Virus record (IMG/VR): IMGVR_UViG_2663762996_000003
Location: 1 to 15,128 of that record
Source of the DNA: a virus
Lineage: Duplodnaviria; Heunggongvirae; Uroviricota; Caudoviricetes
Length of the DNA stretch: 15,128 bases
Direction: 5' to 3' (one strand)
The position numbers and the translations under genes were made by a program. The first letter of the stretch is position 1, and each line of letters opens with the position of its first letter. Positions 3,148-4,387 of the stretch are shown here, piece by piece. The notes below the pieces were generated by a model, which saw nothing but the letters and a program-made list of their open reading frames with translations, had not been told where the DNA came from and searched no databases.

Positions 3148-4387
3148 TGTTCTTTTCGGGATTATTTCAACGAAAAAGCGATGTGCCGGTGACCACGCCA
3201 GCAGAACTGCTGATGCTATCGGGCTGTCATACGACACCTATACCGGAAAGCGGATCAGTAGCCAGCGGGCCATGCGCCTGACGGCGGTCTATTCTTGCGT
3301 CAGGGTGCTGGCAGAGTCTGTTGGTATGCTGCCCTGCAGTCTCTACAAAATCAGCGGTACCCTGAAAACACGGGCGGTGGATGAACGACTGCATAAGTTG
3401 GTTTCGGCAAAACCTAATGGCTACATGACACCGCAGGAATTCTGGGAGCTGGTTATTGTCTGCCTGTGTCTACGGGGGAATTTTTACGCCTACAAGGTAA
3501 AGGCACTGGGAGAAGTGGTGGAGCTTCTTCCGATAGATCCGGGCTGTGTGGAACCGAAGCTGAACAGCCAGTGGCAGCCGGTTTATCAGGTGACGTTTCC
3601 GGATGGTTCCGTGGATGTGTTGACCCAGAATGAAATCTGGCATGTGCGCACCCTGACGCTGGATGGACTTGTCGGGCTGAATCCCATTGCGTATGCGCGT
3701 GAGGCCATTTCACTGGCAGCGGCAACCGAGGAGCACGGTGCCAGGTTGTTTAGTAATGGTGCGGTGACATCCGGTGTGTTGCGTACGGAACAAAAGCTCA
3801 CGCCGGATGCTTACGAGCGTCTGAAGAAAGATTTTGAGGAGTGTCACACGGGGCTTGGCAATGCTCACCGCCCGATGATTCTGGAAATGGGGCTGGACTG
3901 GAAGTCGATGGCGCTGAACGCCGAGGACAGTCAGTTCCTGGAAACCCGCAAGTTTCAGCTGGAAGAAATCTGTCGTCTGTTCCGGGTGCCGTTGCACATG
4001 GTGCAGAACACCGATCGCGCCACCTTCAACAATATCGAAGAGCTGGGGCTGGGATTTATCAACTATTCACTGGTGCCGTATCTGACCCGCATCGAACAGC
4101 GGATCAACACCGGACTGGTACGAAAAAGTAAGCAGGGCGTTTATTACGCCAAATTTAACGCCGGGGCGTTACTGCGCGGGGATATGAAGTCCCGTTTTGA
4201 AGCCTACGCCACCGGGATCAACTGGGGAATTTACTCTCCCAATGACTGCCGCGACCTGGAAGATATGAATCCGCGTCCCGGTGGGGATGTCTATCTCACA
4301 CCGATGAACATGACCACGAAACCATCCGATGGCAGTAAAGCCGGTAAGCAGAAGGATAACGCCAATGCAGACGAAACAACGTCTTGA
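3147..4387 (+). CDS. Portal protein, HK97 family; apparently frameshifted near 3221-3224 (frame 0 start, remainder in frame 2)
   Basis: The frame-2 body (RAMRLTAVYSCVRVLAESVGMLPCSLY... to stop 4387) looks portal-like. A perfect GGAGG (3135-3139) sits 7 nt before GTG 3147, and the frame-0 translation from there ([26 protein letters not shown]) is protein-like but stops at 3279-3281. One extra G in the GGG run at 3221-3223 would join the two frames. The ORF-track start at 3056 ([15 protein letters not shown]) overlaps the membrane ORF and reads like an off-frame product. Confidence 0.8.

Follow-up and report, generated by a model that had tools for sequence, protein, structure and literature searches.

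Two natural portal-protease junction alleles in a 386-bp repeat around an IS4 remnant of a probably hybrid Shigella sonnei prophage

Introduction

Phages exchange DNA with defective prophages through short, nearly identical stretches of sequence (De Paepe et al. 2014, PMC3945230). The locus described here resembles that system, and lambdoid mosaicism, in that a resident defective element and a related phage appear to have given rise to a mosaic and possibly to a viable hybrid. It differs in that one of its joins would be illegitimate, a disarmed insertion sequence has been kept and a two-allele repeat has been created. Template switching at inverted repeats is a second described process that bears on this locus and has been documented in E. 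coli as quasipalindrome mutagenesis (PMC7202029). The insertion sequence concerned, IS4, has expanded in Shigella, where it is multicopy and occurs as a Shigella-specific variant (PMC7373316).

The DNA analyzed, hereafter the window, is a stretch of 15,128 nucleotides that constitutes the whole of contig CXFI01000117.1 in the short-read draft assembly GCA_001259355.1, the proteins of which were deposited as Shigella sonnei. Three groups of sequences are compared with it. The serotype-converting Shigella phages SfII, SfIV and SfI, which have an HK97-like head module, have in common with the window the gene order HNH, small terminase, large terminase, portal and protease, and show ∼94–95% nucleotide identity to positions 620–4660. 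The head-completion and tail genes of the window are those of a lambda-like siphovirus, however, whereas its SfII-type relatives carry a Mu-like tail. The second group consists of lambdoid prophages resembling that of E. coli N51 (NZ_CM165887.1, NZ_AP045170.1), for which the nearest isolated phages are vB_EcoM-606R7 and phi467. These prophages are identical to the window over 3962–4660 and, with the exception of one base, over 6104–15128, and at the three variable sites described below they carry G-A-A. Unlike the window they contain neither an IS4 nor a duplication, their terminase is of another type, and the 5′ two-thirds of their portal gene is diverged so that the portal protein is only 88% identical. 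The third group comprises S. sonnei prophages with a canonical IS4 insertion in the portal gene, which share with the window the left arm, the insertion site, the orientation, the 12-mer of the target duplication and an IS4 body that is 100% identical. The difference is that in the canonical genomes an intact IS4 left end directly follows GTCCCGGTGGTG and the portal is truncated, while in the window the G-A-A 3′ end of the portal gene comes next, then 296 nt of protease gene and a fold-back junction into nt 69 of IS4.

Results

The window encodes an HK97-like head module in which the following genes stand in order, as they do in annotated relatives:

257–607, HNH endonuclease (Pfam scan)
720/729–1223, P27-type small terminase (Pfam scan)
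1220–2953, large terminase (Pfam scan)
3146–4387, plus strand, intact portal gene (PF04860, E = 7e-108), 413 codons with the start used in relatives
6129–6779, plus strand, intact S78 prohead protease, 216 aa, a protein identical in hundreds of proviruses
6794–7999, plus strand, HK97-fold major capsid (Pfam scan), at the start of the N51-like right arm

The capsid gene is followed by connector, tail-completion, tail-chaperone and tape-measure genes. Positions 10469–11142 hold a tail assembly chaperone pair, Phage_TAC_1 and then Phage_tail_T, in the layout of the lambda G/GT frameshift pair. We also observed that Mu-like contractile tails in some prophages, and lambda-like siphovirus tails in others, accompany one and the same terminase-portal-protease-capsid module, in which the protease protein is identical (comparison sets L004, L005, L007 and L144–L152 versus L002, L003, L006 and L153–L162). 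Three starts can be given for the portal: a TTG at 3056 in the mechanically called open reading frame, 3146 as in relatives (413 aa), and 3272 in the deposited annotation (3272–4387, 371 aa). The 5′ two-thirds of the gene (3146–3930) is diverged, with up to 35 mismatches per 100 nt relative to sequences that have an identical 3′ third. The last site separating the window's portal allele from the N51 type is 3886, which places a mosaic boundary inside the portal gene. The complete portal of the window is on record in this contig and in one Logan contig only.

Pairwise alignment and direct reading revealed a gap-free direct repeat of 386 bp, of which an automated repeat finder returned 300 nt only. 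Its parts are as follows:

4275–4660, plus strand, repeat copy A (386 bp), the portal 3′ end and the first 296 nt of the protease gene, haplotype G-A-A
4285–4339, plus strand, variable sites 4285, 4324 and 4339, in portal codons for Gly, Pro and Lys, each at the third position and synonymous
6039–6424, plus strand, repeat copy B (386 bp), haplotype T-C-G

Within copy B, positions 6039–6128 are an orphan portal 3′ fragment that serves as the source of the ribosome-binding site of the protease. Exactly three mismatches separate the copies, G/T at 4285 (6049), A/C at 4324 (6088) and A/G at 4339 (6103), and the 321 bp from 4340 to 4660 match 6104–6424 without exception. In the portal frame, which ends with the stop codon at 4385–4387, the mismatches convert GGG to GGT (Gly), CCA to CCC (Pro) and AAA to AAG (Lys), all of them at third positions and all synonymous. 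A preliminary description of this DNA had reported this pattern, and alignment and codon reading bear it out in every detail. The three sites lie upstream of the protease ATG at 4365, the start used in annotated relatives, and therefore fall in sequence that codes for portal only. Under random mutation or error, three of three differences would fall on third positions with P = 1/27, and under uniform placement all three would lie within the first 65 of the 386 bp with P = 0.0048; the pattern is thus not random noise.

A repeat of this kind next to an insertion sequence might be taken for a target-site duplication of IS4. We reject this since the repeat measures 386 bp as against 12 bp for IS4 and its three differences match natural alleles. 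A plain IS4 insertion with target duplication is likewise ruled out by the 386-bp repeat, the missing left IS end and the differing copies.

Both haplotypes occur in nature. An exact 71-mer with the G-A-A haplotype of copy A was found in 30 complete E. coli genome records and one with the T-C-G haplotype of copy B in 44. Among 80 IMG/VR proviruses that encode the identical protease, the haplotypes were TCA (55), GCA (19), GAA (4) and TCG (2), so that all three sites segregate, and 44 of 55 portal polymorphisms in these proviruses fall on third positions. The three differences are thus inherited synonymous polymorphisms that belong to the standing variation of this phage family, and not new mutations. 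An origin of the differences as sequencing or consensus errors in an otherwise identical repeat has the draft status of the assembly in its favor and nothing else; given the third-position bias and the presence of each haplotype in dozens of independent genomes, we regard it as extremely unlikely, in agreement with the preliminary description, which had also argued against random sequencing error. A further site, 4238 C/T, was considered as a fourth marker of an imported tract and discarded, as the T is private to sister S. sonnei genomes and the 80 proviruses are monomorphic for C.

The preliminary description had further proposed that the copies derive from two diverged portal alleles, and that a recombination or gene-conversion boundary lies near 4340, where the differences end. 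The first of these proposals is upheld, as each haplotype exists in natural relatives and is linked to a distinct lineage, and the comparison with junctions of related prophages suggested there yielded natural carriers of both. The boundary is not. Diversity among the 80 proviruses is 0.0179 per bp in 4275–4339 and 0.0052 in 4340–4660, a 3.4-fold higher value for the former. In this low-diversity stretch the 321 bp agree throughout in 31% of natural pairs taken at random and in 23% of pairs that have three or more differences in the first 65 bp, and E. coli prophages of the GAA and TCG types are already identical to each other over 4340–4660. Three differences followed by 321 identical bases are therefore expected for two independent alleles, and the population statistics render a boundary at 4340 unnecessary. 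For the relevant lineages no informative sites were found in 4340–4660 or in 6104–6769. Switch points can be placed, as brackets only, in 3962–4284 (homologous), at 4660/4661 (illegitimate, into IS4) and in 6104–6769 (homologous).

We then assigned each copy and each arm to a lineage. The E. coli N51 prophage (L006) is identical to the window over 3962–4660, including G-A-A, and matches 6039–15128 at every position except 6049, 6088, 6103 and 9727. It follows that N51-like sequence makes up copy A as well as the right arm past the three sites, and that the T-C-G sites beside the IS4 are, apart from 9727, the only positions of the right arm that depart from it. Six further prophages whose right arm shows 1 mismatch to the window in 9025 positions all carry GAA. 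Each of the seven near-identical right arms differs from the window at a single site in 6104–15128; in N51 this site is 9727. The genome from which the window comes yielded no donor prophage. Concerning the T-C-G haplotype, Logan contig L062 has an uninterrupted portal gene, an identical portal protein (371 aa) and T-C-G, which indicates that the portal lineage hit by IS4 natively carried the copy B allele; T-C-G is also present in L004, L005 and L151. The left arm (1–3961) belongs to the S. sonnei lineage, whose private variants it shows at 3931 and 3961, and is only ∼93–95% identical to any complete E. coli prophage or to SfII, SfIV and SfI. With an S. sonnei-lineage left arm and an N51-like right arm the prophage is a mosaic, as the preliminary description had anticipated in calling it a chimera of two related phages.

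The origin of copy B became apparent from sister sequences with the same left arm, namely IMG/VR contigs L047 and L040 and the complete S. sonnei chromosomes L145 (CP180008.1) and L148 (UGZB01000001.1), which match window positions 1–4284 at 99.93%. At two private bases in the large terminase gene, 1905 and 1918, the window differs from all four. After the matching stretch the sister sequences read ...CGC GTCCCGGTGGTG/TAATGCC..., where the slash marks the junction. This is a canonical IS4 left junction, and it has T at the position of 4285. The right junction of the window reads ...GGCATTA/GTCCCGGTGGTG ATG..., with the following feature on its right side:

6039–6050, plus strand, right copy of the 12-bp IS4 target duplication GTCCCGGTGGTG; the same 12-mer adjoins the IS4 left end in L047, L040, L145 and L148

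Taken together, the sister left junction and the window right junction have the sequences expected for both sides of a single canonical insertion that duplicated 12 bp, 4275–4286. A complete IS4 has identical target duplications of 11–13 bp on its two flanks; in the window the left counterpart of the 12-mer falls within copy A, has the sequence GTCCCGGTGGGG and is not adjacent to IS4. The truncated portal that results from the canonical insertion (343 aa, named Shigella sonnei) is present on at least 1000 contigs. To its right, the same IS4 (L148 13556–15100, L145 13556–16400) is followed in these two complete chromosomes of S. sonnei by unrelated chromosomal DNA, raiA-pheA in the one case and bamE-recN in the other, and in L145 another IS interrupts the IS4. 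These differing right flanks of one and the same IS4 point to repeated IS4-mediated rearrangement, in agreement with the expansion of IS4 in Shigella (PMC7373316).

It is conceivable that the repeat arose by duplication within a single lineage, for example by slippage between the 12-bp target duplications, with the three differences added by later mutations or by a short patch converted from another prophage and 4340–4660 homogenized. A jump between the GTCCCGGTGGTG copies does give the observed order of segments, and the clustering of the differences departs from uniformity as noted above. Such a history is nevertheless very unlikely, because all three differences are segregating natural polymorphisms, each full haplotype is natural, and all differences are synonymous even though one of the copies is non-coding. 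Moreover, copy A matches N51-like phages exactly, the left target duplication has T in sister genomes and G in the window, and homogenization of 4340–4660 is not needed. The position of 6049, only 10 nt from IS4 and thus from the end of homology, also argues against a later conversion of copy B. As the sole event, a pure intramolecular slip between the 12-bp duplications was rejected: it gives the same gene order, but the copies would be identical. We therefore favor two independently inherited alleles as the source of the repeat.

The central feature of the locus, to which the preliminary description of the three differences did not extend, is the 5′-truncated IS4 that lies between the repeat copies (4661–6038):

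4661–4680, plus strand, 20-nt fold-back copy, exact reverse complement of IS4 nt 61–80 (loop, right stem arm and one T)
4681–6038, plus strand, IS4 nt 69–1426, identical at 1358/1358 nt to the IS4 of the canonical insertion in S. sonnei L148
4697–6025, plus strand, intact IS4 transposase, 442 aa (Nterm_IS4 PF13006, E = 3e-33; DDE_Tnp_1 PF01609, E = 8e-32)
4365–4757, plus strand, truncated protease open reading frame, 130 aa, deposited as CST26306.1, ‘phage pro-head protease’

Complete IS4 elements of E. coli and S. sonnei begin with TAATGCCGATCAG and have the transposase ATG at nt 85. The element in the window encodes the DDE transposase typical of IS4, and of the two terminal inverted repeats (TAATGCC... 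and ...GGCATTA) it has the right one, which is intact, ends at 6038 and adjoins 6039. The left inverted repeat is absent and nt 1–48 are missing, and the fold-back stands in the place of IS4 nt 1–68. Its ends mark the element as a remnant of IS4 with a single end, and as such presumably immobile. A minus-strand terminator-like stem-loop followed by a T-run (6009–6034) was flagged within the IS4 right end, overlapping the right inverted repeat, by a simple scan whose flags come near the number expected by chance. The same kind of scan did not flag the IS4 stem-loop plus T-run described next.

The left junction reads GCAAAACG/AAATCCGG and the right junction CATTA/GTCCCGGTGGTGATG. Owing to the fold-back, the stem-loop at 4661–4691, just upstream of the transposase ATG, has a perfect 12-bp stem in place of the usual imperfect 11-bp stem, with a fold energy of −12.2 kcal/mol. 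The orientation of the loop is opposite to that of the window in 52/52 other IS4 copies examined. We considered whether this stem-loop is a normal Shigella IS4 variant, and rejected it as the corresponding 26-mer is antisense relative to the transposase in all 52 other copies; the loop of the window is thus uniquely flipped. Over the fold-back region the best complete E. coli genome has an identity of ≤96.4%, and a search for clean microhomology at 4660/4661 found none. The resemblance to quasipalindrome events is that the sequence adjacent to the junction is the reverse complement of a neighboring stem-loop, by which an imperfect stem has become perfect. Classical quasipalindrome events are point-like corrections within one locus, whereas the fold-back in the window stands at a rearrangement junction with foreign DNA, for which we infer the enzymology.

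Reading through the left junction, CST26306.1 consists of 98 full protease codons, one junction codon that preserves the residue and 31 codons read into IS4, which overlap the transposase start. This 130-aa product and the left junction have no record other than this contig, and a product with the alternative 142-aa start is not on record. Neither junction is covered by any complete E. coli genome. Searches of GTDB species representatives, IMG/VR and JGI metagenomes gave no hit to the left-junction 25-mer, and those of complete E. coli genomes, IMG/VR and JGI metagenomes gave none to the right-junction pattern. When the capsid protein was used to look for other S. sonnei genomes with the right junction, every prophage retrieved was uninterrupted, and a literature search for the accessions found none.

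The restriction of the left junction to one contig raises the question of whether the contig is an assembly chimera, in which both junctions are real and the contig joins two IS4-ended loci or switches between two resident prophages in 3962–4284. The 386-bp sequences would then be paralogous segments at different places and not a repeat flanking one IS4. The assembly is a short-read S. sonnei draft, IS4 has expanded in Shigella (PMC7373316), so that the junctions on either side of its 1.3-kb interior may stem from two separate copies, the sister contigs L040 and L047 break inside IS4, and the other DNA found to the right of IS4 in complete S. sonnei genomes implies that IS4-IS4 rearrangements are frequent. 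We nonetheless consider such a chimera unlikely. No canonical structure has a repeat boundary at 4660, and the IS4 has the length, the orientation and the 100% identity with the S. sonnei copy that one element would show. A fold-back join to phage DNA should moreover not be producible by a k-mer assembler or a gap filler, and so would have been present in the reads. The conclusion that two alleles are present is independent of whether both junctions share one IS4.

Discussion

We consider it probable that the window derives from a hybrid S. sonnei prophage in which the repeat copies are two natural alleles of the portal-protease junction and an IS4-disrupted prophage was rebuilt from a related phage. 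In the first step, which the sister left junction and the window right junction document between them, IS4 inserted in canonical fashion into the portal gene of a resident SfII-like prophage carrying T-C-G. This would have generated the 12-bp duplication GTCCCGGTGGTG, and copy B together with the IS4 right end would be the right junction that survives in the window.

In a second step the left junction would have been rebuilt, with an N51-like phage or prophage (G-A-A) as template or partner. Homologous exchange may have taken place somewhere in 3962–4284, after which donor sequence, acquired by copying or by joining, would have run past the portal stop and on for 296 nt of the protease gene as far as 4660. 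From there the donor sequence would have been joined into the IS4 stem-loop, with loss of nt 1–48 and the left inverted repeat and with the 20-nt fold-back left behind. It is the fold-back at the left junction that argues for illegitimate joining. By analogy, palindromic additions arise from off-centre opening of hairpins. Snap-back of the end on the IS4 side, or template switching at the inverted repeat in two steps, would account for the 20-nt inverted copy and the perfected stem, and a folded end that was opened off-centre may also have left such a trace. A version with a single event is also conceivable, in which a break made at the IS4 left end by the transposase or by other means was followed by repair synthesis on an ectopic homologue. 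Stalled synthesis at that end, repaired on a homologous N51-like template, may equally have set off the event. Alternatively, an N51-like phage may have recombined with the remnant. Rearrangement has removed the native right arm of the IS4-disrupted lineage from two complete S. sonnei genomes, so that the exchanges may have differed from this scheme in number and order.

Whatever the route, the two-allele 386-bp repeat now appears to flank an immobile, one-ended IS4, and to judge from the reading frames the portal upstream of IS4 and the protease downstream of it are both complete again. It is tempting to read this as a functional rescue, in which a related phage served as the template from which the IS4-killed portal gene of a resident S. 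sonnei prophage remnant was restored and the IS was disarmed in the process, but we hold that reading to be doubtful. In kind, an IS-associated recombinational rebuild is known and it is unusual only in detail; otherwise this is ordinary prophage recombination of modest practical value. For annotation, it carries the warning that the 130-aa “pro-head protease” is a junction artefact and that contig continuity across the IS4 needs checking.

The locus would be a clean natural example of a fold-back junction at the stem-loop of an insertion sequence. It also illustrates how silent differences between repeat copies can serve to reconstruct the history of a rearrangement, as here they distinguish the original IS target from the imported copy. 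For S. sonnei, the window suggests that in one isolate a portal disruption that is otherwise widespread in the species, being found on at least 1000 contigs, was reversed via recombination with a related phage. If the doubtful functional rescue were true, the result would be a viable hybrid phage with intact head and tail genes that carries an immobile IS4 transposase gene as cargo in its late operon, and it would document a natural route by which a dead prophage becomes a live phage.
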